Origin: Chlamydiales bacterium
GTDB taxonomy: Bacteria; Chlamydiota; Chlamydiia; Chlamydiales; JAAZZY01
Length of the DNA: 64,000 nt
Direction of reading: 5' to 3'
Assembly: GCA_965206695.1 (NCBI GenBank)
Contig: CBDBKM010000005.1
Coordinates: 73,244 to 137,243, forward strand
Positions 12,475 to 59,487 of this stretch are shown here, piece after piece (the first letter of the stretch is position 1; every line of letters begins with the position of its first letter). Under the pieces are notes generated by a model. The model ran no database searches and was not told the DNA's origin. It saw only the letters and a list, made by a program, of their open reading frames with translations. The translations under genes were made by a program, and so were the position numbers.

Positions 12475-12514
12475 TATACCGGAACTTTGACTGATATGAA
12501 AATAGGTCCTATAT

Positions 12515-14685: not shown

Positions 14686-14687
14686 TA

Positions 14688-21913: not shown

Positions 21914-23021
21914 TATACCCCTTATGAATCAAAGTGCCGATTCTAAGACTTGAAAATGATCATTGATTCGTTTCCTCATTGATTGAGCAATAGAGGGCCA
22001 AGTATTTTCAAAAAATCCGGTAATCGATCTCCGAAATTCTTTAGCAGAATTAAAAAACCGATTATTGCGACAATATTCATTCATCACTTTCCATAATCGT
22101 TCAATGGGATTGAGGTTAGGACTGTAAGAAGGTAAATAATAGAGAATAATACCTTGTTTTTCTGCTTCTTGTTTGGTCTGAATACTTGTATTATAAGGGC
22201 CTTGATCTAAAATAAGATGGATATTTGGAGCTGAGGGGTATTTTGACCGTAGCAAAGCAAAATGCTTTGCCATGGTACCGCTATTTAATGTTTCATAAGC
22301 ATCTATTGTTACCTTCATACTGTTTAAATTGATAGACCCCATAAGATTCATTCGAGTACGAGAAGCTGTTGTTGCAATCAATTTATCTGTTCCCGGTCGA
22401 ATCCAACCATAAGAAATTTTAGTTGCCATAGTTGGATGTACACCATCAGCAAATTCAACAGGCTCATTTTTAGGCAAAGATGCCATAAGCTTGGCGTAAA
22501 ATTGCATCCAAGCTTTTTGTTGATCAGAATTTGCCTTAGCCGGTGTACCTTTAGGCTTTTTATAGGAAAAACCATGTGAGTGTAGCCAAGAAGTCATCCC
22601 TGAAATCGTATAAACAATGCCATATTTCGCGAGAACATAAGAACAGATATCTTCTACTTTGACATAGGTATGAGTTGTTAAATGTTTAATGAATTCTTCT
22701 GACTGTGGCGCAAGAAGTTTACTGACTGAACCACCGCTTTCTATATGCAATTGCTGTTTATTTTGATATTCTTTAATGTGACGAGACACTGTTTCATCGT
22801 CTAAAAGCACAGCTTCAGCAATACGAGTATTACTCCAACCTTTATTCGACAATAGAACAGCCTTGATACGATCTCGTATACGACCATTCTTTTCTCGTTT
22901 ATGTTGCTGTCTGAGATGCTTTTCTTCTGATAGTGTTAAAAATGAATTCATACAAAACAATTTACACTATACGAATACAAAATATCCGGAGGTTTATTCG
23001 TGATGAGTATATACTTAGTAC
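21914..23021 (-). mobile_element. IS630-family IS (fourth lineage), apparently intact
   Basis: Imperfect terminal IRs beginning TATAC, with TA at both junctions. It carries the full-length ORF 21929..22960. Confidence 0.8.
21929..22960 (-). CDS. IS630-family transposase, full length
   Basis: 343 aa in a single frame. N-terminal HTH (WSNTRIAEAVLLDDETVSRHIKEY). DDE residues in FADGVH, LILDQGPYN and YSPNLNPIERLW. Confidence 0.9.
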   Translation of the reverse strand: MFCMNSFLTLSEEKHLRQQHKREKNGRIRDRIKAVLLSNKGWSNTRIAEAVLLDDETVSRHIKEYQNKQQLHIESGGSVSKLLAPQSEEFIKHLTTHTYVKVEDICSYVLAKYGIVYTISGMTSWLHSHGFSYKKPKGTPAKANSDQQKAWMQFYAKLMASLPKNEPVEFADGVHPTMATKISYGWIRPGTDKLIATTASRTRMNLMGSINLNSMKVTIDAYETLNSGTMAKHFALLRSKYPSAPNIHLILDQGPYNTSIQTKQEAEKQGIILYYLPSYSPNLNPIERLWKVMNEYCRNNRFFNSAKEFRRSITGFFENTWPSIAQSMRKRINDHFQVLESAL

Positions 23022-23117: not shown

Positions 23118-23971
23118 ATGAAAAAAGCTTATAAATTTAGATGCTGCCCAATAAAAAAATAAAAAGAGCTTTTAGCTAAAAGCTTTGGTTGTTGTAGGGT
23201 AGTGTATAATCAAGCTTTAAATTTTAAGATTAAGAAATATCAAGAAGAAAAAGAGAGCACATTAAATATTGCAAAACCTAAATAACCATTAAAAATACGT
23301 TGGTCGAGGAGATTGATTGGAATTCCTTCAGGAGTAGCGGTTACTAAAGATACATGCGAAAAATATTTTATCAGTATCCCGGTGGAAGAGCAACCTATTC
23401 AACTTAAGCAATATAATTATGCTATTGGAATCGATATGGGCTCGGAAAGTTTTGTAACAACATCCAACGGTAAAAAGTTAATTTCTCCTAAGCCATTTAA
23501 GTATTTTAAAAAGAAATTAAAAAAAAAATCAAAAATGTTTAAGTAAATTTAAATCTACCGGCAAACACAGAAACAAAAGCAGAATCAAAGTCGCCAAGAT
23601 TCATTTTAAAAATATAAGACATGACTTTTATCATAAACTTTCTACACAATTGATTTATGAAAACCAAGCCATCATAATTGAAGGTTTAAATATCAGAAGT
23701 ATGTTAAAAAATAAAAGATATGCGGAAGGTCTATCAGATGCAGAATAGCGTCAATTGTTAATATTTTTAAAGTATACATGTGATTGGTACGGAAAAAACA
23801 TAGTCGAACTACCTCAGAATTTTCCCGGTATACAACGATGTTCCATATGCCGACACAATGTAGAAAAATTAGAGTGCAATATAAGATCTTGAAAATCCCA
23901 AATGCAATACTGAGCATGACAGAGATTGTAACGCAGCCTATAATATCTACCGAGGGCAGTCGGTAATTTAA
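23118..23971 (+). pseudogene. tnpB: TnpB (IS605 OrfB) RNA-guided nuclease homolog, multiply frameshifted and deleted
   Basis: The N-terminus KAYKFR...LLAKSFGCCRVVYNQAL, the mid part GIDMGSESFVTTSNGKKLISPKPFKYFKKKLKK and the Zn-finger region are spread over several frames. It is shorter than a full tnpB. Confidence 0.75.
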
Positions 23972-24057
23972 GCCTTTGGGGATCGTGTTAGACTAGCACT
24001 TGTTAGCAATGATCGTTGAATGAGGAATTCCCTCCCTTTAGGGTTGGGAGCTGTCAA
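23955..24057 (+). repeat. IS605 RE / putative omegaRNA module 3
   Basis: GGCAGTCGGTAATTTAAGCC...CCCTCCCTTTAGGGTTGGGAGCTGTCAA. It overlaps the tnpB stop and ends 26 nt before the TTG start of the ltaS-like gene. Confidence 0.7.
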
Positions 24058-24082
24058 TTGTTCTTCTAAAGGGGGGATACTT

Positions 24083-25960
24083 TTGAATAGATTCATCAAA
24101 CTCGCGTGGCATTTTTTTTTACTTATCATTATTTATGAAGGATTACGTCTTTTATTTTTAATCAACAATATCGATTTTTTTCAAGATTTTGCTACTAAAG
24201 ACCTTCTCAAAACATTTATCTCAGGCCTTCGTTTTGATCTAGCCGGTATTGGATTTATCAATTTCTTATATGTAATCCTTTATATGTTTCCCATAAAAGA
24301 TGAGTGGATGAATAAATCCTATCTCGCATTTTTAAAATGGTTATTCGTCATTAGTAATGGTATTTTTATTACAGCGAACATCTCCGATGCCGAATATTTT
24401 AAATTTTCCGGAACAAGGTTATCATTAAGTTCATTTAAAATTACGCAAGATTTAGCCGATCAATCTCTTCAATTGATCGGCTATTACTGGTATTTATCTC
24501 TTTTAATTATTTTTAATATCGGGTTTTTAGCCTACTTTTACGACAAACCTTTCTTAAAAAAATGGAACTTTAAATTTAATTTCTTCTCTCAAAATTTTCT
24601 TTTTCTTCTTATGATTTTTTTTATGGTCGTATTCGCAAGAGGTGGCTTACAACTTAAACCTGTCATACCGGCCAATGCCTTCGCTAACAATAAGCCTCGC
24701 TTAGCTCAGCTTGCCTTAAATAGCTCTTTTACTATTTTAAAATCTTCTACACAAGAACAACTCTCATCCCCTCATTATTTTAAAAATTGGAATGAAATAT
24801 TAAATATTCTCAATAAAGAATCATCTGTAAATAAGGGTATTGATCCCTTACCGGAAAACACTAATGTCGTTATTTTTATTTTAGAAAGCTTTGCATTGGA
24901 ATATATGGGTTTGCCTAATAGCTACGAAGGATACACCCCTTTTCTTGATGAAATTGCTAACAACGGACATTTTTTTTATAACCATTTTGCAAATGGACGT
25001 CGCTCTATTGATGCTCTGCCTTCGATTTTAGGTGGTTTACCTGCCTTGATGGATACCGCTTTTATCGTCTCTAGATACCAAACATGTTCTTTAAACGGAT
25101 TACCGGCAACATTAGATGAACGAGGATATTCAACAGCTTTTTTCCATGGAGGGAAAGAAGGGACAATGTATTTTGATGTTTTAACCAAAATGCTTGGCTT
25201 TCATCAATACTTCGGCGCTTCCGATTATCCCAATGAAAAGGACCATAGCGGTAGTTGGGGGATCCATGATCATTCTTTTTTTTCCTTTTCAATAGAACGG
25301 ATTAATGAAATGAAAAAACCCTGCTTTTGCACTATTTTTAGTTTGAGCTCTCACCATCCATATAATATTCCACCCGAACACGAAAATCATTTTCCTAAAG
25401 GAACTTTAGAAATTCATGAAAGCATTGGTTATGCTGATTATGCTTTAAGACAATTTTTTGAGAAAGCCAAAACACAAGATTGGTTTGATAATACCTTGTT
25501 CATATTCACCGCTGATCACACTTCTAAATCTGAATATCCCCAATACCAAACCAATATAGGACGTTTTCGGATTCCATTAATTTTTTATCACCCGCAGAAA
25601 TCATTACCTCTGGTATCAGAAAAGACTGTCGCTCAACATGTGGATATTACACCTACTATTTTAGATTTATTGGGTATCCTACAGACTAAAAAAGCGTTAT
25701 TTGGCAACTCGTTAATCAAAAAAGATAACAACCATTATGCCCTAATCTACAATTCTAATACCTATTGGCTTGTTAAAGATGATTTTCTCACCCAGATGAA
25801 TCCTGACGGTAGTATCGAATATTTCAACCGGGAACAAGACCCCCTTCAAACCAAGCAACTATCCATACATGCTCGGCAAAAAAATCCGTTAGACAACTTG
25901 TTAAAAGCCAACATCCAATATTATAAGGATGGCCTTAAAGAAAATAAGATATCTTGGTAA
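24083..25960 (+). CDS. LtaS-like sulfatase-family membrane enzyme (phosphoglycerol/phosphoethanolamine-transferase-like)
   Basis: N-terminal polytopic membrane region plus an alkaline-phosphatase/sulfatase domain (VVIFILESF, GRRSIDALPS, SSHHPY, FTADHTS). The start is set at TTG 24083, after AAAGGGGGG, because the longer ORF (24020) begins inside the RE repeat. Confidence 0.8.
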   Translation: MNRFIKLAWHFFLLIIIYEGLRLLFLINNIDFFQDFATKDLLKTFISGLRFDLAGIGFINFLYVILYMFPIKDEWMNKSYLAFLKWLFVISNGIFITANISDAEYFKFSGTRLSLSSFKITQDLADQSLQLIGYYWYLSLLIIFNIGFLAYFYDKPFLKKWNFKFNFFSQNFLFLLMIFFMVVFARGGLQLKPVIPANAFANNKPRLAQLALNSSFTILKSSTQEQLSSPHYFKNWNEILNILNKESSVNKGIDPLPENTNVVIFILESFALEYMGLPNSYEGYTPFLDEIANNGHFFYNHFANGRRSIDALPSILGGLPALMDTAFIVSRYQTCSLNGLPATLDERGYSTAFFHGGKEGTMYFDVLTKMLGFHQYFGASDYPNEKDHSGSWGIHDHSFFSFSIERINEMKKPCFCTIFSLSSHHPYNIPPEHENHFPKGTLEIHESIGYADYALRQFFEKAKTQDWFDNTLFIFTADHTSKSEYPQYQTNIGRFRIPLIFYHPQKSLPLVSEKTVAQHVDITPTILDLLGILQTKKALFGNSLIKKDNNHYALIYNSNTYWLVKDDFLTQMNPDGSIEYFNREQDPLQTKQLSIHARQKNPLDNLLKANIQYYKDGLKENKISW

Positions 25961-26083: not shown

Positions 26084-26095
26084 CTTCAGATATAC

Positions 26096-26330
26096 ACTCA
26101 TCCACATTGGAAGCCGGACAGGAGCACTTGAAATGTATCATTCATTCGTGTCTTAAGCTTGTCTCTTAAAATCGGGATTTTTTCTTTAAAAAAGCCCCTT
26201 ACCTCTCATTTAAAATCAGTGAATGTATTATAAAATTTATTATAAGTAACCGCTTCCCTCATCATTTTCCAAAGCCTTATCTATTGCATTTAAATTTGGA
26301 GAATAATGTAGGGGTAAATAGACATGCTCT
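26096..26330. repeat. segmental repeat copy 2 (see 21688-21912)
   Basis: Alignable by eye to 21688-21912. It runs into the IS630-type remnant at 26241 onward. Confidence 0.6.
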
Positions 26331-26660
26331 ATACGTGAAGTTTTTAAATATTCTGTGAATCAGTTTGTTGTTATTGGCTCTTCCGTTATCTAAAATGACA
26401 TCTATTTTTGAAGCCTGTGAATGTTTTTCTAATCCTTTTAAGAAGTCAATAACCCCCTCTTCCTCCAATCATAGAATATTCTTTTGACCTGATTGTCATA
26501 CCCTCAAGTCGCAAAGCTCCAATAATTAGGCCTCCCGGTTTGCTTCTTTCCGGTCTTAATCGTTTTCTTAACCCCTTTTTGGATCCACCCACATACAGTT
26601 TAGAGGATGTACTGCATCAAAAAAATAGATCTCTTCAGAATTTTGAAGACCGGCTTTTAA
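26241..26660 (-). pseudogene. IS630-family transposase remnant (second lineage)
   Basis: ORF 26277..26468 (IDVILDNGRANNN...) plus frameshifted upstream pieces. The 3' end PNLNAIDKALE-like sequence matches 2640-2700. Confidence 0.55.
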
Positions 26661-31805: not shown

Positions 31806-33883
31806 ATGAAAGTCGTTTTAGCCGAAAAACCCAGCGTCGCAAGAGATATCGCATCCTTTTTAAAAGCTAATACTAAAGGCAATGGCTATTTTGAAGGTAA
31901 TGGTTATCAGGTTACATGGGCATTCGGACATTTAGTCACCTTAAAAGACCCGAATGAGTACGATCCCGGTTTAAAAAAATGGACCTTATCTACTCTCCCC
32001 TTTATTCCTAAAGATTTTGAATTGAAACTCGTCAATAATCAAGGGGTAAAAACCCGGTTTCAAGTAATTAAAAAGCTGTTTAAGGCAAGCGGATGAAATC
32101 ATCTGCGCTACAGATGCCGGAAGAGAGGGAGAGCTTATCTTTCGCTATATTCTGAAGATGAGTAATTGTGAAAAAAAGCCCTTTTGCCGTCTTTGGTTAA
32201 CTTCTTTAACCAATGAGGCAATTAAGTCGGGTTTTAAACAATTACAACCCGGAGAGGTCTATAACAACCTATATATGGCTGCTAAATGCAGAAGTGAATC
32301 TGATTGGGTAGTGGGAATAAATGGCACGCGAAATTTTACTGTGCGATATGGAAAAGGAACTCTTTGGAGCATCGGAAGGGTACAAACACCTGTTTTAGCT
32401 ATGATCGTTGCAAGAGATGATGAAATTCGAAACTTTGTCCTTCAAAATTTTTGGGAGCTTTTTTCCACTTTTAAAAACGTAGCTTTTAAATATACCGGTA
32501 AACGTTTTGATAAAAAAGAAAAAGCAGAAGTTGCAAAAGCCAAAGTTGCATCTCATCCTTTCAGCATAACAAAAATTCAAAGCAAACAGGAAAAGCAACA
32601 ACCCTCCTTCTTTTATATGACCTAACCGATTTACAGCGAGACATGAACCGTCGATATGCTATGAGTGCATCGGATACGTTAAAAATTGCTCAAACCCTAT
32701 ATGAAAGTAAAATTCTGACTTATCCCAGAACCGATTCACGTTTTTTAAGCAATGATATGAAAAAGGACATTATTCATACACTTCATAAATTAAAAGCCAT
32801 AAAATCAAATGAAATCGACGTGCTAAATTTGAATGCACTTCCTTTTACATCTCGCATTATCAATGATAAAAAAGTATCCGATCACCCATGCTATTATCCC
32901 TACCGGCAAAATCCCTTCAGGCCTTCCACTATCTCATCAACAGGTTTTTGATGCCGTTGTGTTACGCCTTATCTCCGGTTTTTATCCTAATTGCACTAAG
33001 CAGGTTAAAACAGTTGAGGGAGAGAGTAATGAATTAAAATTTCAAGCTAAAGGCATTCAAGTCATAGAGCCCGGTTGGACACGATTATATCCTAAAACTA
33101 AAAAAGATGATGAACAAGAATTGCCTGAATTTAAAGAAGGTGAAACGGGTCCTCATAATCCATATATCAAAGAAGGTAAAACCAAGCCCCCCTAAATATT
33201 ATTCTGAAAATTCACTACTTGGCTCCATGGAAACCGCAGGAAAGATGGTGGAAGATGAGACGTTAAGAGAAGCATTAAAACAAAGAGGCCTTGGAACACC
33301 GTCAACTAGAGCTGCTATTATTGAGACTTTACTCAAAAGAGGATACATCGAAAGAAAGAAAAAAACTCTTGTAGCTACTGCTAATGGTCGATATTTAATT
33401 ACGTTAGTACAAAACCCCAATTTAAAATCTCCGGAGCTTACCGGTATTTGGGAGTCCAAATTAAAAGAAATCGAACATGGTGGTTTAGATTCTAACCAAT
33501 TTATGAATGAAATTTACGGTTATACCAAGGAACTTATTGAAACGAGTAATCTAACTGAGATTGACCCAAATCAACTGGGTCCTTGCCCTCTTTGTAATAG
33601 CTCCGTTATTCAAGGAAAGAAGGGCTTCGGATGTTCTCAATGGAAAAAAGGCTGCACATTCGTTTTATGGAGAGAATACAAGGGAGTCACTCTTTCTACG
33701 AATCATATCCAAAAGCTATTGCAAAAAAGGGTCATTTTATCGCCCGTCAACGTACCTGAATTAGGAAATGTCATCTTAACACTTTCCGATTCAGGTATCG
33801 TTAAAGAACAACCCGTTCCAAATGAAGCGCCTGCCTTTAAGAAGCGGTATCCGAAAAAGGCCTATTCTAAGCGGCGACAATAA
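31806..33883 (+). pseudogene. topB: DNA topoisomerase III, four frameshifts
   Basis: Recognisable parts: Toprim MKVVLAEKPSVARDIA, ICATDAGREGELIFRYI, TYPRTDSRFLS, SDH-HAIIPTGK and the Zn ribbon CPLCNS...GCSQWKKGC. Frame changes lie at 32084-85 (GG), 32602-04 (CCC), 32885-87 (CCC) and 33187-92 (C6). Confidence 0.85.
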
Positions 33884-41187: not shown

Positions 41188-42013
41188 ATGAACAAACTTT
41201 TTTTATTTTTTGGATGCATTTTTATGCTTTTGCAAACACTGGGAGCAGATATCCACACAATAGAAAAATATCAATGATATTAATGATCAATTGCAAACGG
41301 CCGATTCTGAAACTCTTGTCATTTTTGATCTTGAACAAGTACTATTCCTTCCCGATGATCTCGTACTACGTCCTTGTTCAGAGGCTCTGTTAAAAGACCA
41401 AATCTCAATGATTCAAATGGGCTCTTTAGGAGATCATGACTTTGATCTTATCTTAAGCAAGATCTATCTCCAAAAAACCAATAATTTAGTTGATGCTAAT
41501 ATCATTCAAATTCTTGCAGAATTACAAGCAAAGCATATTCCGGCCATAGGCCTTACTAAAACAAATATCGGCTCTAAAGGGTATATGCAAAGTCAGGAAG
41601 ATGCTCGCTTAGTCGAACTTGAAGAATTAGGCATCTCTTTTTCAGAAACATTTCCGGATAAAAATGGCATGGTTTTAATGATCGACGAAGAAAAAAATCA
41701 ACCCATTTTTAAAGACGGTGTTCTTTTCTGTGATCGCTATAGCAAAGAAGAGGTATTATCTACTTTTATAAGCCGGCTTAACTTCAAGCCAAAAAACGTT
41801 CTCTTTATTGACGGTAAGCTAAAAAATGTAAAATCTGTAGAAGAAAAAATGGAGAAGCAAGGGATCGCTTTTCAAGGATACCACTACATTGCAGTCAAAA
41901 AAGACCTCGAAATTGATGATGAACTAGCTAAGTATCAGCTAAAGCATTTGCTCGAAACCGGTAAATGGCTAAATGATGAAGAGGCCGGGTCTCATCTATC
42001 TGCTGATGAATAA
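41188..42013 (+). pseudogene. secreted HAD-like protein (DUF2608-like), +1 frameshift after the signal peptide (or a sequencing error)
   Basis: Signal peptide MNKLFLFFGCIFMLLQTLGA at 41188. It joins ORF 41291..42013 (LVIFDLEQVLF...) if one A is removed from the A5 run 41264-41268. Confidence 0.6.
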
Positions 42014-42248
42014 TCCTCTTATTCTAAAGTAATAAATTTAATTTTGTTTTTCATTATGATGATGTACCATGCACGAATGACTTAATTCACTTGATTTAAG
42101 AAAAAAAACCCTCAAATATCTCGATAAGATTGGAGCCGGTTTTTAATTTTTTTAAAATATAAAAGCGAGTGCTACGGGAGAAATCCAGTAGAATTAGATC
42201 AATATTTTCCTAGTACACAAAAGTGTTCTACATACGGTTATAAACAAG

Positions 42249-42354
42249 GGCAGTCGGTAATTTAAGCCTTTGGATATCGTATTAGACCAGCTCTTTTGTT
42301 AGCTGTTGTCTGTGAATCAGGAACCCCTTCCCTTATAGGTTTGGGAGCTGTCAA
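42249..42354 (+). repeat. IS605 RE / putative omegaRNA module 6 (preceded only by a tnpB C-terminal scrap)
   Basis: GGCAGTCGGTAATTTAAGCCTTTGGATATCGTATTAGACC...CCCTTCCCTTATAGGTTTGGGAGCTGTCAA. Positions 42165-42248 encode a VELDQYFPSTQKCS-like TnpB scrap. Confidence 0.65.
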
Positions 42355-42555
42355 ATAAGCCCTAATTGCCGGTCCTGCCAAAAAGTTATGGCGTATCTTA
42401 ACTCTGAGAGTAAGCAAATACCTCACAAAGATGTAAAAAACCCTGAAAATAGACAGAAACTTATTGGCATAGGCGGAAAAGGGCAAGTATCTTGTCTTAT
42501 TATCAACGGTGTTCCTCTGCATGAATCTCTCGAGATTATTGCATTGCAACGAAGT

Positions 42556-43026
42556 CTAGTCGTCTTTAGAATAATCTCTCTGTTTATCATCAATCTCTTT
42601 ATTACGTTGGCGCTTCCAAGGGCTCCAACCGGGGATATTGGGAAGGGCAAGCAGCCCAAGGATGATGATAGTTCCGGCGATTCCAACTATGTACATACTA
42701 TTGGCAATAGATAGTCCGATAGATGCTGTTGCCCATAGAGTCGCAGCTGTTGTCATTCCTCTTACTCTACCATGATCACGTAAAATAACCCCGGCTCCTA
42801 AAAAACCAATTCCGCTAACTATTTGGGCTGCTATCCTGGAAGGATCAGCAGGGCCGTGTACATTAAAAGAAATAAGTCCAAAGAGGCACGCCCCTAAAGC
42901 TACAGCAGCATGAGTTCTAATGCCGGAAAGACCAACATGCTTTTCTCTTTCCAACCCGATTACACCACCTAAAATAGCGGCAAATAATAATTGGAAAACC
43001 ATTAATAACTGTTCTTCCCAAGTCAT
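42556..43026 (-). CDS. mgtC: MgtC/SapB-family membrane protein
   Basis: 156 aa. GGVIGLEREKHVGLSGIRTHAAVALGACLF and GIGFLGAGVIL. The start lies 27 nt after the RE end of module 7, preceded by AAGAGG. Confidence 0.88.
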   Translation of the reverse strand: MTWEEQLLMVFQLLFAAILGGVIGLEREKHVGLSGIRTHAAVALGACLFGLISFNVHGPADPSRIAAQIVSGIGFLGAGVILRDHGRVRGMTTAATLWATASIGLSIANSMYIVGIAGTIIILGLLALPNIPGWSPWKRQRNKEIDDKQRDYSKDD

Positions 43027-43052
43027 GTGAGCACCTCTTATTAAGCCACTAA

Positions 43053-43155
43053 TTGACAGCTCCCAATCCTAAAGGGAAGGGATTCCTCATTCAACGACCC
43101 TTGCTAACAAGGGTTAGTCTAATACGATATCCAAAGGCTTAAATTACCGACTGCC
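43053..43155 (-). repeat. IS605 RE / putative omegaRNA module 7
   Basis: Reverse complement GGCAGTCGGTAATTTAAGCC...CCCTTCCCTTTAGGATTGGGAGCTGTCAA. It overlaps the tnpB stop (..NIDTEGQSVI*). Confidence 0.7.
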
Positions 43156-44097
43156 CTTCGGTATCTATATTATAGGCTGCGTTAAAATCTCTGTCATGCA
43201 AAGTATTACATTTGGGACATTTCCAAGATCTTATATCGCAATCCAATTTTCCTATATTGTGCCGGCACATGGAGCATCGTTGTGTACCGGGAAAATTCTG
43301 AGGTAATTCTACTATGTTCCTTCCGTACCAATCACATGTATACTTTAAACATGGTAACAATTGACGCCATCCTGCATCTGATATACCTTTCGCATATCTT
43401 TTATTTTTTAACATACTTTTGATATCTAAACCTTTAATTATGATTGCTTGGTTTTCATAAATCAATTGTGTAGAAAGTATATGATAAAAGTCATGTCTTA
43501 TATTTTTAGAATGAATCTTGGCAACTTCGATTCTGCTTTTGTTTCTGTTTGAGCTGTTAGATTTAAATTTACTTAAACGTTTTTGATTTTTTTTTAATTT
43601 CTTTTTAAAATGCTTAAATGGCTGAGGGGAAAGTAACTTTTTACCGTTGGATGTTGTTAGACAACTTTCCGAACCCGGATCTATTTCGGTAGAATGATCC
43701 GGTTCTTTAGACTTTGCAATATATAAATGCATTTCCAGCCCATCTAAACGCGGAATTGGTAAACGAAATTGATTAGGTAGTGTTTTTAGTTTTGAATGTA
43801 GGAAAATGAACCCTCTTTTTAAAACAATTTGAATACGCTCTATCAAGGTTCCTAAGGCTTTGCCGTAGACAAATAGAGATGCTTCCTTTAACCAAAGAAA
43901 CTCTTTATTTTAAGATCTGTCAAGAATGCTGATATCACAGAGTTAGGAGATACTTTCTTTTTCTTCTTGATATTTCTTAACCTTAAAATTTAAAGCTTGA
44001 TTATACACTATCCTGCAACAACCGGAGCTTTTAGCTAAGAGCTCTTTTCGTTTTTTTGTTGGGTAGAATCTAAATTTATAACGTTTTTAATAGTCAT
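43139..44097 (-). pseudogene. tnpB: TnpB homolog, N-terminal part degenerate
   Basis: ORF 43139..43846 carries the RuvC/Zn-finger part (CSMCRHN...CPKCNTLHDRDFNAAYNI). The N-terminal KAYKFRFYPT region is frameshifted and shortened. Confidence 0.85.
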
Positions 44098-44099
44098 AC

Positions 44100-44523
44100 A
44101 TTGTGTTATACTATTGGTATATATATTGTCCAGATGGAAAACTGTCAAAGGCAGCTATTTTTAATCTTAGTTATCATGTATTTGGTGTACTAAGTATAGA
44201 AGCAAAATTTTCGAGGAAAATCTTGAAAAAAAGACTAAGAGAGTTATGAAATGAGAAAGCCCATCAACTATCTATGGCAATTAAAGCACCTGATATTATG
44301 CCCGACCATGTACATATGTTTATCAAAACTCAACCCATTCAATCTTCACAGTTTATAATTGGTCAACTTAAAGGATACGGCAGTCGCTTGTTAAGGCAAG
44401 CATCCTCAAGTTTAAAATCTCGAGTGTCTACATTAATGAACAAGATCGTATTATGTTGATAGTGTGGGAGGACTAAATGAATATACAATTAAGGAGTATA
44501 TCCAAAATCAAAAAAACAAATAG
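44100..44523 (+). pseudogene. tnpA: IS200-type TnpA, disrupted
   Basis: ORF 44274..44459 (APDIMPDHVHMFIKTQPIQSSQFIIGQLKGYGSRLLRQ). The 5' and 3' parts lie in other frames and the protein ends ...YIQNQKNK*. Confidence 0.8.
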
Positions 44524-44816
44524 ACGCTTTCATCCCAATGATAAAACAAGAGGTTTTCTCGTTTAATTGTCATAAAAAATATTGTTTAATATTGTATTAA
44601 TCGTATTGTAGTAATAAAAAAGTATGTTTTTAAGAGTGAGATCGAATGCCTAAAAATTCATGAGACTTTATAAAAAACCTCACAGTATCCGAGACGGAAA
44701 AGCCGTAACAGAATATTTGGAAAATCAGCGAGGTATTCCGGAAAGAAAAAAACGATTAGTAATCCTCTCTTAATTTTAAAAAATCAGTCAATCAGGAGTA
44801 ACTCAATTTATCGATT

Positions 44817-46238
44817 ATGAAACGATTTAATTTTCTTTTTCTTATATGCATTATTTTTTCGGCTTCTTCTATTTATTCTTATGATCTTTTAAACGAACCG
44901 CTTGCTTTCGAAGATCGTAAGATATCAGATAGTTATGAATTAGGTCACGCTGATCAAATTAAAATCCCCCAACCGACAGAGAAAGTCATGAGGTATTACC
45001 ATACAGGGAATATCCTATGGTTTGTCTCGCAGTTTTGGAACTTAATCATCCCCGCCTTATTTCTTTTTACCGGTTTTTCTGCAAAGCTCCGAACTTGGGC
45101 AAGGATCATTTCCGATAGGTGGTACTTCACCCTTCTCTTTTACTTTTCTTTTTATTTTATCATCTATCAAGTCATCTCCATACCTCTTTCACTTTATGCC
45201 ACTTATCTCCGCCCTCATGATTACGGATTGTCAACTCAACCTTTAGGAGCTTGGTATGTTCAGTATCTATTAAATACAGTGATTGTTTTAATGATCGGAG
45301 CTCTCTTTCTTTGGATCCCTTATATATTAATTAAAAAATATCCTACGCTATGCTGGTTCTACGCTGCGATCCTTTCCATACCTACCACCATTTTTTTTAT
45401 ACTTATCTACCCTATTTGGATACAACCAATCTTTAACGAATTCAAACCTTTTCCTGCCGGGCCGCTAAGAAGTAGAATCGAAAATTTAGCGGAAAGGACC
45501 GGTATTGATAGTAAGCGCATCTATATAGTAAACAAAAGCAAGGAAACGAATCGAATTAATGCTTATGTTGTCGGATGGGGACGCACCCAACGCATTGTTA
45601 TATGGGATACGGCTATTAAAGAGCTAAGTAACGATGAATTGATGTTTGTCCTGGCTCATGAAATGGGTCATTATAAACTTGGACATATTTGGATCAGCTT
45701 ACTTTACTTTAGTTTGACAAATTTTTTAATCTTTTTTCTGATTTATAAGGTTGGACATTATTTAATCAATCGTTTTCGATATCATTTCCATTTTCAAAAA
45801 ATGGATGATGTTGCTTCTTTTCCTCTTTTAATACTCTTATTTAATCTCTTTTCTTTTATTACAGAACCCATAGACAATGCCTTCTCTCAATATAGGGAGC
45901 ATGAAGCAGATCGCTTTGGACTGGAACTGACTCAAAATAATAGAGCCGCCGCTGAAGCATTTGTTGTTTTACAACGAGAAAATTTAATCAACCCATCTCC
46001 CGGCCTATTTTACCGATTATGGATTGCACACCATCCGCCTTTACAAGAAAGAATCAACTTTTCTAATAACTATCACCCTTGGGATCAACAGATACCTCTT
46101 TTCTATCAATCGCTTTTTAAAGAAGATTTATCTAAAAAGGTAGATTCCAAACAGGATTCCCCAAAGCACCATCACCGAAATTCAAACCAATCTAAACGAG
46201 GTAACCATGGAAAGAATAAATCCCATCAAATTAATTAA
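44817..46238 (+). CDS. M48-family (Ste24/HtpX-like) zinc metalloprotease
   Basis: Multi-TM N-terminal half, HEMGHYKLGH (HExxH), EHEADRFG, and a basic His-rich tail. Confidence 0.85.
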   Translation: MKRFNFLFLICIIFSASSIYSYDLLNEPLAFEDRKISDSYELGHADQIKIPQPTEKVMRYYHTGNILWFVSQFWNLIIPALFLFTGFSAKLRTWARIISDRWYFTLLFYFSFYFIIYQVISIPLSLYATYLRPHDYGLSTQPLGAWYVQYLLNTVIVLMIGALFLWIPYILIKKYPTLCWFYAAILSIPTTIFFILIYPIWIQPIFNEFKPFPAGPLRSRIENLAERTGIDSKRIYIVNKSKETNRINAYVVGWGRTQRIVIWDTAIKELSNDELMFVLAHEMGHYKLGHIWISLLYFSLTNFLIFFLIYKVGHYLINRFRYHFHFQKMDDVASFPLLILLFNLFSFITEPIDNAFSQYREHEADRFGLELTQNNRAAAEAFVVLQRENLINPSPGLFYRLWIAHHPPLQERINFSNNYHPWDQQIPLFYQSLFKEDLSKKVDSKQDSPKHHHRNSNQSKRGNHGKNKSHQIN

Positions 46239-48618: not shown

Positions 48619-49206
48619 TTTATGACAATTAAACAAGAAAATCTTTTGCTTTAGCATTAGGATGAAAGCGTCTATTTGTTTTTTTTGATTTTGGATATAC
48701 TTCCTAATTGTATATTCATTTAGTTTTCCCACATTATCAACATACTACGATCTTATCCATAATGTAGGCAATCGAGATTTTAAACTTGAGAATGCTTGCC
48801 TTAACAAGCGACCGGTGTATCCTTTCAGTTGACCAATTGCAAACTGTGAAGATTGAGTGGGTTGAGTTTTGATAAATATATGTACATGGTCAGGCATAAT
48901 AACCTCCATAGAGAGTTGATTGGCTTTCGCATTTTAATCACTTTCTTAGTCTTTTCTCAGTATTTTCTTAGTACACAACAATGCTCCATATGCCGGTACA
49001 ATGTAGGAAAATTAGATTACGATATAAGATCTTGAAAATGCCCCAAATGCAATACTTTGCATGACAGAGACTTTAACGCAACCTATAATATAGACACCGA
49101 AGGGCAGTCGGTAATTTAAGCCTTTGGAGATCGTGTTAGACTAGCATTTGTTAGCAATGATCGTTTGAATAAGGCATCCATTCTCTTTAGGGTTGGGAGC
49201 TGTTAA
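48619..49206 (+). mobile_element. IS200/IS605-family element, copy D (internal-deletion derivative)
   Basis: From left to right it carries the LE TTTATGACAATTAAACAAG, a reverse tnpA 3' half (to about 48900), a tnpB C-terminal scrap (CSICRYNVGKLDYDIRS.KCPKCNTLHDRDFNATYNIDTEGQSVI) and an RE. 588 bp. Confidence 0.8.
49103..49206 (+). repeat. IS605 RE / putative omegaRNA module 8 (terminus variant TGTTAA)
   Basis: GGCAGTCGGTAATTTAAGCCTTTGGAGATCGTGTTAGACTAGC...TCTCTTTAGGGTTGGGAGCTGTTAA. It abuts the stop codon of the minus-strand ORF 49203..49676. Confidence 0.65.
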
Positions 49207-49676
49207 GCTAATCGTTCTGATTGTAAACGTTCTATAGAGGCATTTTTTCTTCCTTCAGTATAGATAACGGCTTGATAAAACTTATATGACAACCAAAGCC
49301 AAAATATTCTACCAACAATACCAACAGAATCAACTAAGACTACCTTAATGTGCATTACTAAAATAAACTGAGTTAGAATTTCAATACAAAGCCCTAAAAA
49401 GTATGGAACAGAGAGTAACAAAATACAATAGTATCTAAACTTTGCTGCAAAACAATTTCCTCTTACATAAGCATAATAAAGAGGTATTAATAAAAACATA
49501 GTTACTAATAAGAAGTTAAGAAAAACAAAAAGGTATTTATAATGAAAAAAAGCTTGAAATCCAAGCTTCATGAGATACGGTATGATTGTTCCAAAAGCAT
49601 AAAGGACTGCAATTAACCAAATAATGGATGCTCCAAAATAAATATGTCTAACCCACTTAGCGTTTTTTAAAGTCAT
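49203..49676 (-). CDS. hypothetical polytopic membrane protein
   Basis: 157 aa with about 4 TM segments. No family was recognised. Confidence 0.5.
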   Translation of the reverse strand: MTLKNAKWVRHIYFGASIIWLIAVLYAFGTIIPYLMKLGFQAFFHYKYLFVFLNFLLVTMFLLIPLYYAYVRGNCFAAKFRYYCILLLSVPYFLGLCIEILTQFILVMHIKVVLVDSVGIVGRIFWLWLSYKFYQAVIYTEGRKNASIERLQSERLA

Positions 49677-54471: not shown

Positions 54472-57400
54472 TTAAGTCTCTAATTTTGAGTGCAGCTTAG
54501 TCTGATAATTTTTTAAATAAACATTTAATCGTTTAGCTAAATCAGTAATATTAGGTTGCATGAGCATACTGATATGATTACCTGCTACCTCATGATTTTC
54601 AATACTTCCTTCTATGAGATGATGCCAAGTAGATGAAACGGTAATATCCGCTATTGAAGATAATCTGTCCTCTGCCTCAAAAAATAGCACATCACCAAAA
54701 TATTTTTTTGGCTTGTAGTTATCAAAGGCAAGCCAATGAACTTTCATCTTTTCAAAGAGTTTTTCCTTTTCAGAAAAGGATGAAGGTTCAAAGTGCATAC
54801 TTTTCATCAATATTTCTATTTGGTCATGTCTTGAAAGACCTTTAAGCTCTTCTGCTAGTTTGGGATTAGCAGAAAAAAGTTCAGCTAAGGTCGTTATCAT
54901 TTCAGTTTCAGTATCTACCTGTACCTTGTGAGGCAATTTCTCAGGGCAAATAATATCCAACATTGCCAGTAAAGAAATATCTTCAGATTCTTCTTTTAAC
55001 CGTATCGCCATTTCATAAGCTATAAGGCCTCCAAAAGACGTTCCTAGTAATTGGTAAGGCCCTTTAGGTTGTATCTTGCGAATTAACTGAATATACTTAG
55101 CAGCGATCTTTTCAATTGATATATGATCTCCAATTTCATAATCCGGACTCTCTAAACCATAAATAGCACTATCGTGTTTCAAAGCCTCAACTAAATCTTT
55201 ATAACAAAAGACGGAACCACTAATAGGATGCATGCAGAATAAGGGTTGATTTGTATTACCGTCTTTTAATTTTACAACTAAATGTGTTGAATCTTTTACC
55301 TGAATTTGTTGATGAATCGCTTTACCTAGTTTTTCTATTGTCGAATATTCCAATAGCATATTAGAACGAATTGAAATTTGGAATAATTCTTGAATTTTAG
55401 AAGTAATTTGAATAGCTAATAATGAGTCTCCTCCTAAATGAAAGAAATCATCGTGAATACCAATCGACTCTAACGCTAAAGCCTCTTGCCAAATAGATCT
55501 CAATGATCGTTCCAAATGATTTAAACTATGGTTTATCTCTTTGTGTACCTTCGGAGTATTTGTAGTAGAAGAATCCTTCGTAGGTGGGTAGATCCAGAAC
55601 TCTTTTTTCTTAAAAGGATAAGTGGGCAAGGAGATTCTATGAGATTGATTATTAACACAAAGCCTACCCCAATCTATATCAAGACCACGCGACCAAAGCT
55701 TACCTAATAATGAAAGATGAAATTTTGAACTGTCCTTTTCTACTGTAGGTAGTGATGGAGAAATAATATTTTCACGGTGAGTTAATTGATTTGTTTTGAT
55801 GAAACGGCAAACACTAGAGCCCGGGCCAACTTCAATGATTGCTTGATTCGGTCTTTTTAAAAGATCTTGAAAAACTGATAAATGCTTATTTAACGGGATC
55901 GAAGAATTGGAATAGGTCATCACTTTTTCCATTGTCTCTTTTAAGATGCCGGGATTCTCAATATAGCCTTCTAAATAGCGACCTATACCCCATGTAATGA
56001 TTCTATCCGGAAAGAGACCCCGGCTTTTCCATAACAAAAATAACGAATATGATATGATGAAATATGATAGATTCACCACCTCTTTTTTCTGATCTTGAAG
56101 AGAAGGATTTTTTATATCTAATGCCTCGCAGCAAAGAAAAGGTCGAAGGTTAATATCGAAATACTTTTTCGATAACTCAATAAGGTGATCGATACTGTCT
56201 CTAAAACAAGGCTCCTTTTCATAGAGATATTGTGAGGTATTAGTCCACTCATCTTGAATATCGGGAAGAATAAAAATAACATCGGGCTTTAAATCAACAG
56301 ATTCGAAAGTCTGATGATCATATGATAGCCTTGCAAGTAACTCCTCTTTATTGGAACACATAATCGCCTCTCTATAAGAAAAGCTTTTTCGACCGACTTG
56401 CAAGGTATAGGATATATCTCTTAAAGAGAACTCCGGATTCTTAAGCAAATGGTTTTTTAAACGAGAAAACATCTGATTAAGTGCCCATTCTGATTTGGCA
56501 GACAAAATAATTAACTCATCTCTATTCTTATTTTGAATAGTCGGTAAGATCGGCGCTTCTTCTAAAAGAATACAAGCATTTGTCCCTCCAAAACCTAAAG
56601 AAGACACTAATGCTCTTCTTGGATGAGATTTTTTCTCCCAATTTTTTAACTCTGTATTCACGTAAAATGGAGTTTTAGCAAAGTCGATAGTTGGATTAGG
56701 AGTATCAAAGTGCAAACTAGGAGGCAACATTTGATGGTTTAAAGCTAATGAGCATTTAATAAAGCCTGCTACTCCGGCCGCTTCCATCAAATGACCAATA
56801 TTACTTTTAATAGAACCTATAGCACAATAACCCGTTCTTTGAGTCTGTGCTTTAAAAGCTCGGTCTAAAGCATGAATTTCAATCGGGTCTCCCAGAGGCG
56901 TAGCAGTGCCATGAGTTTCAATATAGCCTATTGTTTCCGGATGAATGTCAGCTTTCTTAATAGCAAGGGAAACGGCTTCAACTTGCCCTTCAATACCGGG
57001 AGCTGTAAATCCAATTTTTTCTCCCCCATCATTGTTCATGCCATATCCGGAGATAACCGAATAAATATGATCGTTATCTTTCAAGGCTTGATCTAAAGGT
57101 TTTAAAACAACCACTCCAACACCACTTCCCGGTACTGTACCTTCAGCCTTTTTATCAAAAGATCTGCAATGACCATCCGGTGAAAAAATCATCCCATTTT
57201 GATAGAGATAACCTCGCTTTTGAGGGATTGAGAGGGATACTCCTCCTGCTATAGCAATATCACACTGATTGCTAAAAAGATGATCGCATGCAACGCAAAT
57301 AGATACCAAAGAGCTCGAACAAGCTGTTTGAATAGCAAGACTAGGCCCTTTGAGATTAAGCTTATATGAGACTCTTGTGGTTAAATAATCTTTTTCGTTA

Positions 57401-57855
57401 CCGATATGAGAAAGATATTCATCTGAATCATTTCGAAAGTCTTTATTAGGATATAGGTTATGTAAGTAATACAAACTATTACTACTTCCTGCAAATACCC
57501 CAATAGGTTGAGAGCTGTCCTTAGAATATCCGGCATCTTCTAATGCTTCATAACAGGATTCTAAAAACAGTCGATGCTGCGGATCCATTAATTTCGCTTC
57601 TTTAGAACTGATACCAAAAAAATTAGCATCAAAAGAAGCTATATCATCGACTATCCCTCTTGCAGGTACATAATTGGCATTATCTATCTGTTCATCAGAT
57701 ATTCCCGATATATGTAAATCGTGTTCAGAAAATTTTGAAATAGATTCCCTTTTTTTAGAAATATTATCCCAAAAGGCATCCGGATTATTAGCGCCCGGAA
57801 AGCGGCTTATCATTCCTATAATAGCAATCTTATGATCCTTTTTATTAGGAATCAT
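54472..57855 (-). CDS. single-module polyketide synthase: KS - degenerate AT - carrier protein - thioesterase
   Basis: KS motifs TACSSS, ETHGTATPLGDP and NIGHLMEAAG. The KS-AT linker is followed by an AT relic with TWGIG instead of GHSxG. The carrier domain has FFHLGGDSLLAIQ, and the TE has GTSFGG ... GNHISM. Confidence 0.9.
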   Translation of the reverse strand: MIPNKKDHKIAIIGMISRFPGANNPDAFWDNISKKRESISKFSEHDLHISGISDEQIDNANYVPARGIVDDIASFDANFFGISSKEAKLMDPQHRLFLESCYEALEDAGYSKDSSQPIGVFAGSSNSLYYLHNLYPNKDFRNDSDEYLSHIGNEKDYLTTRVSYKLNLKGPSLAIQTACSSSLVSICVACDHLFSNQCDIAIAGGVSLSIPQKRGYLYQNGMIFSPDGHCRSFDKKAEGTVPGSGVGVVVLKPLDQALKDNDHIYSVISGYGMNNDGGEKIGFTAPGIEGQVEAVSLAIKKADIHPETIGYIETHGTATPLGDPIEIHALDRAFKAQTQRTGYCAIGSIKSNIGHLMEAAGVAGFIKCSLALNHQMLPPSLHFDTPNPTIDFAKTPFYVNTELKNWEKKSHPRRALVSSLGFGGTNACILLEEAPILPTIQNKNRDELIILSAKSEWALNQMFSRLKNHLLKNPEFSLRDISYTLQVGRKSFSYREAIMCSNKEELLARLSYDHQTFESVDLKPDVIFILPDIQDEWTNTSQYLYEKEPCFRDSIDHLIELSKKYFDINLRPFLCCEALDIKNPSLQDQKKEVVNLSYFIISYSLFLLWKSRGLFPDRIITWGIGRYLEGYIENPGILKETMEKVMTYSNSSIPLNKHLSVFQDLLKRPNQAIIEVGPGSSVCRFIKTNQLTHRENIISPSLPTVEKDSSKFHLSLLGKLWSRGLDIDWGRLCVNNQSHRISLPTYPFKKKEFWIYPPTKDSSTTNTPKVHKEINHSLNHLERSLRSIWQEALALESIGIHDDFFHLGGDSLLAIQITSKIQELFQISIRSNMLLEYSTIEKLGKAIHQQIQVKDSTHLVVKLKDGNTNQPLFCMHPISGSVFCYKDLVEALKHDSAIYGLESPDYEIGDHISIEKIAAKYIQLIRKIQPKGPYQLLGTSFGGLIAYEMAIRLKEESEDISLLAMLDIICPEKLPHKVQVDTETEMITTLAELFSANPKLAEELKGLSRHDQIEILMKSMHFEPSSFSEKEKLFEKMKVHWLAFDNYKPKKYFGDVLFFEAEDRLSSIADITVSSTWHHLIEGSIENHEVAGNHISMLMQPNITDLAKRLNVYLKNYQTKLHSKLET

Positions 57856-58169
57856 TTTTTTCTCCTATTAGTTAAGTGAACTAAAATTTTTAATTACGAT
57901 TTGATTCTTTTAAAACTCATATTTTCAAATAATTCAGAAAAATTAAAATAAATATTCAATATTAGTTAAGTACTAGCTGTTTTCTTTTGAGATGCGGTAT
58001 TAAATCATATAATAAAATTATTAATTGTCATTCAGATCAGTGCAAAATTAATTAACATTAAACAAACATTCGATTGAATATTCGATGTTCCTTATTAAAA
58101 AATCAATAATTAAAAAAAATATTTAATAAATAAATTCATTAAAATCCTCAAATCAATTAAAGATCATTT

Positions 58170-59335
58170 GAATAACTCATGTTACGCAAAATCAAATAGC
58201 ATATCATTTTTCCGGCTCATGAAAGGTAGCCTGATTTGCTTTGATCAATAATTTGTATTTTAGGGCAAAATGGTTAAGATGGGTTTTAATTTTTAAAAAT
58301 TCCGGCTTGCAATAAGATAGGAGAGATGCAAAAATATGGTTTTTTTGAGATTTTTCAACCTTGGTAGGCGATTTTGCAAGGCTTGCATTTTGCTTAATAG
58401 ATTTGTGATACTCTTCTATTCTCCACCGTTTTTTGTAGATCTCATAGAGTGAGTCAGCATCATGGTTTAAGTCGTTGCTCACAAGGTATAGAGTCCCCGT
58501 GGAATTATCTTCGTTTTTGAAGACTTTTTTCACTAAGGAAACGGGAAAAGATAAATCTTTAAGCCGGACTATCTTTTTTTCTCCATCCTTGAAATTAATC
58601 GATTCAAGATTGTGATACTGACCTTTTTTTCTTGCTTCTTCTGAGAAAGCGATGAGTCTGTTGGACTTCATGCCTAAAATAAATTTCTTATCTGTATCAT
58701 AATGAATAAACTCCCTATTTTTTTTAGCTCCAAACCAATTATCTGCAAGAATATAATCAAACTTGACCTGATTCCGTATAGCTTGCTTTATTTGTTTTTG
58801 AAATAATTCATTTTTAGTGACATCGGATTTTCTTGTTTCCTTTTTGGTTTTGATATCACAAAAATGTACTGTTTTAGATATGACTTCATATCCGATAGGA
58901 AATACAATGTCATCATAATGAACAAGAGTAGATAAAATGTTAACCCCTTTGATACACCGACCTTTAGCATGAGAAAAATGCCATGCAATAATATCATTTT
59001 CATCCGTGTAAGGCTTCTCTTCGATAGAATCATCTATAATCAAAACACCGGCTTTACCTCCTGAATATTTTTTCAGCGTGTCTTTTACATAGCACCATAA
59101 ATCTTTTCCTGAAAATTCTCTCTTATTGAGAAAACGAGTAATTTTATCATGGCTGATCTCACCATCTAATAAAGCTGACAGTCCGGTAGCCGTAGCATAT
59201 TGGTTTTGGCTGATAAGGTAATCTGTATATATATCCGGGAGCTGTTTTGACATATTTTTTCCTCATAATTAGAGAAAAAATTATAAAAATAAAAAACTTT
59301 CTTTACATCACCTTTGCGGTAAGGTGAGTGAATAA
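58170..59335 (-). mobile_element. IS4-family insertion sequence, apparently intact (boundaries +/-15 bp)
   Basis: Imperfect IRs containing ACTCAnnTTAC(C)GCAAA. It carries ORF 58204..59253 and sits in the AT-rich divergent region between the PKS and NRPS genes. A second, broken copy lies at 1172-2638. Confidence 0.75.
58204..59253 (-). CDS. IS4-family DDE transposase
   Basis: 349 aa with LIIDDS, LADNWFG and the Y-2-R-3-E-6-K signature in YKKRWRIEEYHKSIK. Confidence 0.88.
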   Translation of the reverse strand: MSKQLPDIYTDYLISQNQYATATGLSALLDGEISHDKITRFLNKREFSGKDLWCYVKDTLKKYSGGKAGVLIIDDSIEEKPYTDENDIIAWHFSHAKGRCIKGVNILSTLVHYDDIVFPIGYEVISKTVHFCDIKTKKETRKSDVTKNELFQKQIKQAIRNQVKFDYILADNWFGAKKNREFIHYDTDKKFILGMKSNRLIAFSEEARKKGQYHNLESINFKDGEKKIVRLKDLSFPVSLVKKVFKNEDNSTGTLYLVSNDLNHDADSLYEIYKKRWRIEEYHKSIKQNASLAKSPTKVEKSQKNHIFASLLSYCKPEFLKIKTHLNHFALKYKLLIKANQATFHEPEK

Positions 59336-59395
59336 GTGCCTATATCAGATGGCCCCAAATATAGAATTGAATATAAATCCAATTTGTTTTAACAT

Positions 59396-59434
59396 GAACA
59401 ATCAAAACAAATATAATATTTGTTTTGATTGTTC
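59396..59434. promoter_or_regulatory. 39-bp palindrome (19-bp perfect arms, 1-nt spacer) upstream of the NRPS gene
   Basis: GAACAATCAAAACAAATAT-A-ATATTTGTTTTGATTGTTC followed by TTTTTT, ending 54 nt before ATG 59488. Confidence 0.45.
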
Positions 59435-59487
59435 TTTTTTGATTATTAAGATTTAAATAGAATAAGGAGTAATTAAGAAGTAATGAT

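Follow-up and report, generated by a model that had tools for sequence, protein, structure and literature searches.

Why should a single chlamydial gene lie between two transposon ends that point at each other? The question is raised by a 64,000-nucleotide (nt) stretch of the genome of a Chlamydiales bacterium (contig CBDBKM010000005.1, positions 73,244 to 137,243; the whole stretch is referred to as the window), in which a gene of the mgtC family (42556-43026, minus strand) is enclosed by two convergent right ends of the IS200/IS605 family of insertion sequences (IS), with no other gene between them. The arrangement was first remarked in a reading made from the DNA letters alone (the sequence-only reading), which saw the same architecture around a LtaS-like gene elsewhere in the window and offered three explanations: capture or mobilization of single genes, an insertion hotspot at gene boundaries, or regulatory co-option. 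From the analysis presented here we conclude that the bracket is probably the residue of two independent insertions of IS200/IS605-family elements, followed by decay and IS-associated rearrangement, and not a functional cassette.

The bracket and the origin of its two ends

The features of the mgtC bracket are, from its downstream to its upstream side:

42131-42241, plus strand: tnpB scrap of the downstream IS remnant, corresponding to about TnpB residues 291-327; 83% identical to copy A and 76% to copy B
42246-42354, plus strand: right end/putative omega-RNA scaffold module M5, with its GTCAA end at 42354; points at the mgtC 3' end
42355-42555, no strand: unique spacer from the end of M5 to the mgtC stop codon, 201 nt
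42556-43026, minus strand: mgtC/sapB/yhiD-family gene, 156 amino acids, intact, membrane domain only
43027-43052, minus strand: native mgtC leader, 26 nt, TTAGTGGCTTAATAAGAGGTGCTCAC, with the Shine-Dalgarno sequence AAGAGG 7 nt before the ATG
43158-43053, minus strand: right-end module M6 of IS copy B, with its GTCAA end at 43053; co-oriented with mgtC
43197-43169, minus strand: predicted sigma-70-like promoter, ATGACA-17-TATAAT, 11/12 consensus positions, in the tnpB 3' coding end (HDRDFNAAYNI)
43139-44098, minus strand: tnpB pseudogene of copy B, with the start lost, three in-frame stops and ~80 codons missing
44274-44459, plus strand: remnant of tnpA (Y1 HUH transposase) of copy B; Pfam Y1_Tnp, E=5e-9, contains HVHMF
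44470-44576, minus strand: left end of copy B, with the TTTAT boundary and then a candidate subterminal hairpin

The anatomy given in the sequence-only reading holds throughout. The two ends at 42354 (plus) and 43053 (minus) are placed correctly to the base, and mgtC does begin just after the upstream module with AAGAGG in between, its ATG lying 27 nt past the last base of M6, so that the native leader occupies the omega-RNA "guide" position of the adjacent right end. M6 belongs to a full-length but dead IS, copy B (44576-43053: left end, tnpA, tnpB, right end), and mgtC is indeed co-oriented with its defunct tnpB. On the other side M5, described before as some 200 nt from the mgtC 3' end and retaining only a piece of tnpB, is a stump consisting of the tnpB scrap and the right end. 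The ~117 nt normally found between the two have been deleted, and M5 has lost the tnpB 3' segment that bears the promoter motif. Both modules finish in ...GGGAGCTGTCAA.

These modules are true right ends of the IS200/IS605 family (IS605 group). A right-end 40-mer occurs six times in the window at three or fewer mismatches against zero occurrences expected, and is therefore not a chance repeat; BLAST of the window found seven right-end modules and one fragment. When the copies are aligned with their flanks, right-end homology stops directly after GTCAA in all eight, and left-end homology starts at the TTTAT/GACAATTAAACGAG boundary (TTTAT-GACAAT) in six, the sequence before TTTAT being unrelated. 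The ends are thus asymmetric, with fixed boundaries, no target duplication and otherwise unrelated flanks. In copy B, tnpA is divergent from tnpB, which is the organization of IS605 proper, and homologous tnpA remnants are found in copies A and D. The TnpB remnants match OrfB_IS605 (E=1e-13 to 1e-27), the Cas12f1-like TNB (zinc-finger) domain (E=5e-18 to 2e-22) and the helix-turn-helix (HTH) profile HTH_OrfB_IS605 (E=2e-18). The right-end module takes in the tnpB stop codon, which an omega-RNA scaffold would be expected to do, and is better conserved (80-90%) than tnpB (72-76%). A consensus fold can be drawn for the right end, with a compensatory change in none of its pairs. Hairpins of the form CCC..TTTAG..GGG can be drawn ~20 nt inside the left end and ~8 nt inside the right end at energies no better than those of shuffles; that of the left end has compensating differences between copies A and B. 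The fold energy of the leader was likewise no better than that of shuffles. A search of Rfam with the right-end RNA gave no family at the gathering threshold and none relevant at E<=1, and a scan for the exact 25-nt right-end core in genome and metagenome contig collections gave no match.

Pairwise identity among the IS605 copies is 72-89%, and their decay is heavy. No intact tnpA or tnpB was found within the window, every tnpB copy being a pseudogene; the tnpB of copy A has many stops throughout, and that of copy B, aligned by eye to P0241 and P0245, has Lys where these relatives carry the RuvC-II Glu. In a library of 1.8 billion proteins the nearest full-length TnpB is ~45% identical, closer matches being fragments. 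The element represents a new lineage, by its looks extinct, within a known IS family, and its behavior is of known kinds: survival between genes, decay to solo ends, disruption of synteny and, probably, donation of a promoter.

The two ends of the bracket did not arise from each other. M5 shares a 2-nt hairpin insertion with M4, the module of copy A, and M5 and M6 come from different subfamilies; a recent inverted duplication of one right end is therefore excluded. As a separate observation, M1 and M5, both of them solo right ends, each have upstream one copy of an inverted 90-nt repeat (78% identity; 3320-3408 versus 42030-42119).

The second bracket, around the LtaS-like gene, is also real. 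Its parts are:

23953-24057, plus strand: right-end module M2 of copy C, reading into the LtaS-like gene
26087-25982, minus strand: right-end module M3, 21 nt beyond the LtaS-like stop codon
21695-23008: IS630-family element inside the left part of copy C, with DDE_3 transposase at 21929-22960, terminal repeats CTCATYCAC... and TA junctions

On its inner side M3 stops at the terminal repeat of an IS630-like element (26092-26334), with a TA junction. This is a 243-nt fragment of the element whose full copy sits in IS605 copy C, and it abuts and truncates M3. Judged by these junctions, the LtaS-side bracket is likewise accidental in construction, its M3 stump having been made by the IS630-like insertion. 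The LtaS-like (sulfatase-family) gene itself (24020-25960) is modeled in the database as 646 amino acids starting at an ATG (24020) inside the IS right end; an alternative start is the TTG at ~24083, preceded by a GGGGGG Shine-Dalgarno sequence. Its nearest non-self homologues (<=45%) are in Oligoflexia/Bdellovibrionota and Bacteroidota (Pontibacter) and not in Chlamydiota, which suggests an old horizontal acquisition.

Ancestry of mgtC and loss of its neighborhood

The sequence-only reading introduced MgtC as a virulence factor that is often horizontally acquired. Neither part of that description applies here. The protein matches Pfam MgtC (PF02308) with E=4e-34 and 118 bits (cut-off 31.4). 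Against the NCBIfam MgtC equivalog NF011912 it scores 103 bits, below the cut-off of 255, and matches model positions 11-124 of 231. At 156 amino acids, compared with ~230 for the Salmonella type with its N-terminal membrane and C-terminal cytoplasmic domains, it is by these profile matches a membrane-domain-only protein of the MgtC/SapB/YhiD type and not a Salmonella-type virulence factor; since only the membrane domain is present, the virulence framing does not transfer. All 61 family-invariant residues are kept. The closest relatives, at 57-75% identity, are Chlamydiota wherever named (Simkania negevensis, Simkaniaceae, Neptunochlamydia), the first named non-chlamydial match coming at 53%. 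These homologues point to an environmental chlamydia near Simkaniaceae as the source of the window. The third-position G+C content (GC3) of mgtC is 0.33, compared with 0.29 +/- 0.03 for the genes of the window, which is within 1.4 standard deviations (sd). Because its closest relatives are all Chlamydiota, mgtC is chlamydial and vertically inherited, not recently acquired.

Vertical ancestry does not extend to the position of the gene. In all eight of the other chlamydial lineages compared, mgtC stands divergent beside nusB-murB-PHP(-folC), usually with a convergent ferritin gene next; a profile-based scan for mgtC loci gave at least four further chlamydial loci, none among those listed closer than 68%. 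When the neighbors of those eight loci were sought in the window at permissive thresholds, only mgtC was shared, and no remnant of ferritin, the ancestral neighbor, was found in the 42355-42555 spacer. The nusB-mgtC linkage is therefore broken on both sides, and the breaks coincide with IS remnants. As none of the conserved neighbors is present here, the IS copies mark rearrangement breakpoints, and homologous recombination among dispersed IS copies would be the parsimonious cause of the loss of synteny. The sequence-only reading had held that vertical inheritance at a conserved locus would speak against its proposal; the ancestry is vertical, and the locus, separated as it is from the nusB neighborhood, is not the conserved one.

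What surrounds mgtC at present is partly foreign, in that both the M48 peptidase gene beside copy B and the LtaS-like gene are nearest to non-chlamydial relatives. The neighbors of the mgtC region are now a DUF2608 gene and the gene for this M48/Ste24-type peptidase (44817-46238). The best matches of the latter, at ~50%, are in KSB1, Verrucomicrobia, Acidobacteria and others, and a search for a close chlamydial orthologue found none.

The region is also crowded with IS. The window holds 11 IS605 remnants (four two-ended, three right-end-only, one right-end fragment and three solo left ends, the last at 7839, 14801 and 53798), together with at least four IS630-family copies, one IS4-like copy and one ISAs1-like fragment, and IS-derived DNA makes up ~23% of it; the G+C content of the window is 35%. 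An insertion hotspot at gene boundaries, as the sequence-only reading had considered, is only apparent. The candidate target TTTAT occurs at 6.5 per kb in genes and 8.6 per kb between them, and 75% of the TTTAT sites that lie outside IS-derived DNA fall in genes, yet none of the 11 remnants does, every one being intergenic. Since the target is mostly genic, their position at gene boundaries fits selective survival of insertions that disrupt nothing and is no evidence of targeting. Nor are the remnants biased in orientation relative to genes: by map reading, three right and two left ends face gene 3' ends, and five right and three left ends face gene 5' ends.

Other arrangements of these ends were observed in the same part of the window. 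Left ends at 44576 and 48619 diverge around the M48 and M3 peptidase genes, making a bracket of two left ends. The second of these belongs to copy D (48619-49206), an internally deleted element of ~590 bp that keeps a left end, a tnpA fragment, a tnpB 3' end with the promoter motif, and a right end. Its left end is 26 nt from the ATG of the M3 peptidase gene (48592), which mirrors the 26-nt gap between right end and mgtC, and its right end overlaps the stop codon of an open reading frame (ORF; 49203-49676) that has no family match.

A proposed history and its alternatives

Only 26 nt of native sequence remain upstream of mgtC. Because these cannot hold a promoter and the gene is intact, mgtC must be transcribed from or through copy B. 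Its most likely promoter is the predicted ATGACA-17-TATAAT site in the 3' end of the copy B tnpB, which is the best sigma-70-like site in 41900-44900 and has a predicted start at ~43162, just before the right-end module; no terminator-like site was found between this predicted promoter and mgtC. The same motif is present in the IS copies at 23916, where it reads into the LtaS-like gene, and at 49061. Five sites of such quality occur in the whole window, three of which are the IS motif and one the presumed tnpB promoter of copy A. The regulatory co-option envisaged by the sequence-only reading is therefore plausible for the upstream module, as donation of a promoter, and falls away for the downstream one. 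Both M5 and M3 lack the tnpB 3' segment, and hence neither has a visible promoter.

Two other roles for the ends were considered and rejected. A hybrid promoter across the junction of right end and leader would have TGTCAA and TAATAA only ~9 nt apart, and the downstream right end has no hairpin plus T-run with which to serve as an intrinsic terminator on the mgtC strand. Elsewhere in the window, ORF 21461-21075 has an AGGAGG Shine-Dalgarno sequence, and a right-end fragment (the 3' half only; 21505-21549, minus strand) ends 43 nt ahead of its ATG. With this fragment there are three start codons that closely follow a co-oriented right end.

Based on these data, we put forward the following history for the mgtC locus. 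A complete IS would have inserted upstream, 26 nt before the mgtC start codon and with its right end towards the gene, and has since died. An IS of a different subfamily would have inserted downstream, its right end towards the mgtC 3' end, and would later have been reduced to a tnpB scrap and the right end. Recombination among IS copies would then have replaced both ancestral flanks (nusB-murB upstream and usually ferritin downstream), leaving mgtC as an ancestral island, one gene long, within a region that is rich in IS and partly foreign, where it would be transcribed from the promoter in the copy B tnpB 3' end with the omega-RNA scaffold as its 5' leader. The decay is haphazard and without pattern, in that M3 is cut by an IS630-like end and solo left ends also exist. 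If this history is correct, it is a textbook case in which an IS200/IS605 lineage flourished in an environmental chlamydia and then died out, having disrupted the deeply conserved nusB-mgtC neighborhood, and left a host gene, mgtC, dependent on IS-derived transcription. The point of experimental interest would be an omega-RNA scaffold that serves as the 5' leader of a host mRNA after the loss of TnpB.

Several observations weigh against this history. The first is the number of brackets. Eight right ends were placed at random, with random orientation, in 35-55 intergenic gaps of the window; the probability of at least one convergent single-gene bracket was 0.22-0.32 and that of at least two was 0.015-0.033, which is nominally low, these values being post hoc in that the pattern was picked after inspection, three other configurations would have been equally striking and the remnants are clustered. 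Hence one bracket is within what chance provides, and the case that this window makes for the enrichment of convergent right-end pairs raised in the sequence-only reading is weak. Second, M5 and M6 are 95.6% identical over the first 45 columns of the module and 77.8% over its 3' two-thirds, and a perfect 42-nt match between them (42247-42290 in M5, 43157-43114 in M6) carries two variants that only this pair has in combination. Some exchange between the two ends, perhaps gene conversion, may lie behind this. Third, promoter donation is argued from a match to a consensus. Shuffles contain no fewer matches of this kind than the window does, and the motif is under a second constraint, since it encodes the conserved HDRDFNAAYNI of TnpB.

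If the promoter call is set aside as a consensus match only, mgtC could have been cut off from its promoter, be silent or on the way to becoming a pseudogene, and the IS would contribute nothing. The region is rich in pseudogenes (the topoisomerase fragments at 32158-33883 and the dead IS genes). However, the ORF is of full length with every family-invariant residue kept, and the flanking IS copies are old, so that an unexpressed gene would have had time to gather lesions. An intact mgtC beside old and decayed IS thus disfavors silence, and we consider it unlikely.

One might also suppose that the decayed right ends have been retained for a purpose, since the promoter and omega-RNA scaffold would together form the 5' leader of host genes that start 25-45 nt beyond them (mgtC, the LtaS-like gene and ORF 21461), with the inverted right end at the 3' side either closing an mRNA duplex or permitting flipping. 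This would mean that an omega-RNA module had been domesticated without TnpB, which in our judgment is improbable.

The two roles just mentioned for the inverted end can each be considered separately. For the first, a read-through mgtC transcript would have ends that pair in a duplex of ~100 bp, giving stability or a target for RNase III, or the downstream right end would drive an antisense RNA. The predicted duplex is strong (-160 kcal/mol, compared with -39 +/- 5 for shuffles) for the mgtC and LtaS pairs alike; in the minimum-energy fold of a hypothetical 917-nt transcript, 99 pairs join the first and last 114 nt, and past the end of mgtC the minus strand has no predicted terminator-like site. 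Such a duplex is, however, automatic for any inverted repeat. M5 and M3 are without the promoter-bearing tnpB 3' segment, so antisense transcription would have no visible promoter, and the arrangement is carried by no related genome examined, hence conservation offers it no evidence. An RNA-level role is accordingly very doubtful in our view.

For the second, homologous recombination between the inverted right ends would flip the mgtC segment, making a crude on/off switch in which the inverted state would turn the copy B promoter towards the mgtC 3' end. The perfect M5/M6 match, with its two private variants, does lie in the promoter-proximal part of the module, and the split in identity along the module is the signature expected of gene conversion or crossover. 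Nevertheless, the exchange is supported by two shared sites only, a match of 42 bp is close to the shortest that RecA-dependent recombination can use, no gene for a site-specific recombinase is adjacent to mgtC, the sequence holds a single orientation, and nothing comparable was found when the M2/M3 pair was checked for such a signature. We give a switch of this kind, the basis for which comes with any inverted repeat just as the duplex does, as little credence as an RNA-level role.

Least credible of all, and very improbable, is that the gene between two right ends forms a mobile or capture cassette in which the IS605 machinery (TnpA, or TnpB cleavage and repair) moves single genes. In its favor are the displacement of mgtC from a locus conserved in eight of eight relatives with both breakpoints at IS605 ends, the same architecture at a LtaS-like gene whose nearest homologues are non-chlamydial, and the nominal P of ~0.02-0.03 for two brackets. 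Against it, IS200/IS605 TnpA recognizes and cleaves the top strand only, and the DNA that it excises runs from a left end to a right end of that strand (PMC5027513), whereas the right ends here are convergent, on opposite strands and of different subfamilies, and M5 has no left end. As no strand carries a left end, the gene and a right end in that order, convergent right ends cannot move the gene; only direct repeats of the IS could place the three on one strand. For single-strand transposons, convergent right ends are exactly the arrangement that is unable to transpose. Moreover, no intact tnpA or tnpB exists in the window, the truncation of M3 is accounted for by the unrelated IS630-like insertion, and brackets made of two left ends or of mixed ends occur too. 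The proposal of the sequence-only reading that single genes are captured or mobilized here is thus not borne out. It should be noted as a caution that where a quarter of the DNA comes from IS, symmetric-looking IS brackets around single genes form easily. Trans-targeting by orphan guides was also tried as an explanation and rejected: the 20-nt flanks of the eight right ends gave no TTTAT-adjacent match in the window at four or fewer mismatches.

The remainder of the window contains further repeats and accessory genes. A direct repeat of 941 bp, 99% identical (11537-12476 and 13747-14687), carries an IS630-family transposase in two ORFs; its second copy abuts the solo IS605 left end (14687-14801). 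This repeat is far younger than the IS605 copies, and the IS630 family may therefore still be active. An inverted repeat (1183-2638 and 58173-59328), made of three adjacent blocks (78, 287 and 179 bp) that are 97-98% identical and 56 kb apart, lies at its left copy beside and within IS630-family ORFs (1321-2177) and at its right copy overlaps a DDE_5/IS4-like ORF (58204-59253); it is a potential substrate for inversion of most of the window. The DNA topoisomerase gene (Topoisom_bac, 32158-33883) is split into at least two ORFs that match N-terminal and C-terminal stretches of that domain and is probably a pseudogene. Positions 54472-61878 hold a polyketide synthase (PKS)-like gene (KS, ACP, TE), a phosphopantetheinyl transferase gene and a nonribosomal peptide synthetase (NRPS)-like gene (C-A-PCP), interrupted by the IS4-like copy, an unusual accessory content for a chlamydia.

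Comparison with known systems

With respect to the element, the copies described here resemble IS605, IS606 and IS608 of H. pylori and ISDra2 in having a Y1 HUH tnpA divergent from tnpB. Like IS605-type members generally, they have two unlike ends, lack both terminal inverted repeats and target duplication, and have a short conserved motif, here TTTAT, directly beside the left end; subterminal hairpins can be drawn at both ends. The corresponding motif of IS606 is also TTTAT, while that of IS608 is TTAC; the right end of IS608 finishes in TCAA, as do the right ends here. They differ from those members in that all copies in this window are dead, the nearest full-length TnpB is only ~45% identical and there is no Rfam match.

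The remnants also call to mind the solo ends, palindrome-associated transposable elements (PATEs) and miniature inverted-repeat transposable element (MITE)-like derivatives of IS200/IS605 elements, which are likewise short and non-autonomous and keep cis-acting ends. Copy D is PATE/MITE-like. M5, M3 and M1 differ from these in keeping the right end only, so that TnpA could not move them, and M3 at least was made by an unrelated IS630-like insertion and not by regular miniaturization.

Three more familiar settings do not describe the mgtC locus. It is not a composite transposon, as the right ends are on opposite strands and M5 is without a left end, and mgtC is not a horizontally acquired island gene, given its Chlamydiota relatives and a GC3 within 1.4 sd of the genes of the window. 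The likeness to TldR lies in a TnpB relative that has lost a RuvC catalytic residue beside a host gene, with the guide position over the leader of that gene. The TldRs, however, are intact and conserved proteins, whereas the tnpB of copy B, lacking a start codon and ~80 codons and having three in-frame stops, cannot yield a protein and is thus no TldR-type repressor.

Closer parallels exist for the two processes that we propose. Outward promoters of IS are known from ISAba1 upstream of bla and from IS1 and IS5, which activate bgl. As in these cases, an IS lies directly upstream of an intact gene and co-oriented with it, the native promoter has been displaced, and a strong promoter-like site near the IS end reads outward. 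The difference is that the candidate promoter here lies within the 3' coding sequence of tnpB, and that the leader would be the whole omega-RNA scaffold. For the rearrangement, the parallel is with the IS-mediated synteny breakpoints of IS-rich intracellular bacteria. There, too, the points at which conserved gene order breaks are the IS copies themselves; several IS families and pseudogenes are dense here as well, and we see no essential difference between those breakpoints and the ones that now enclose mgtC.

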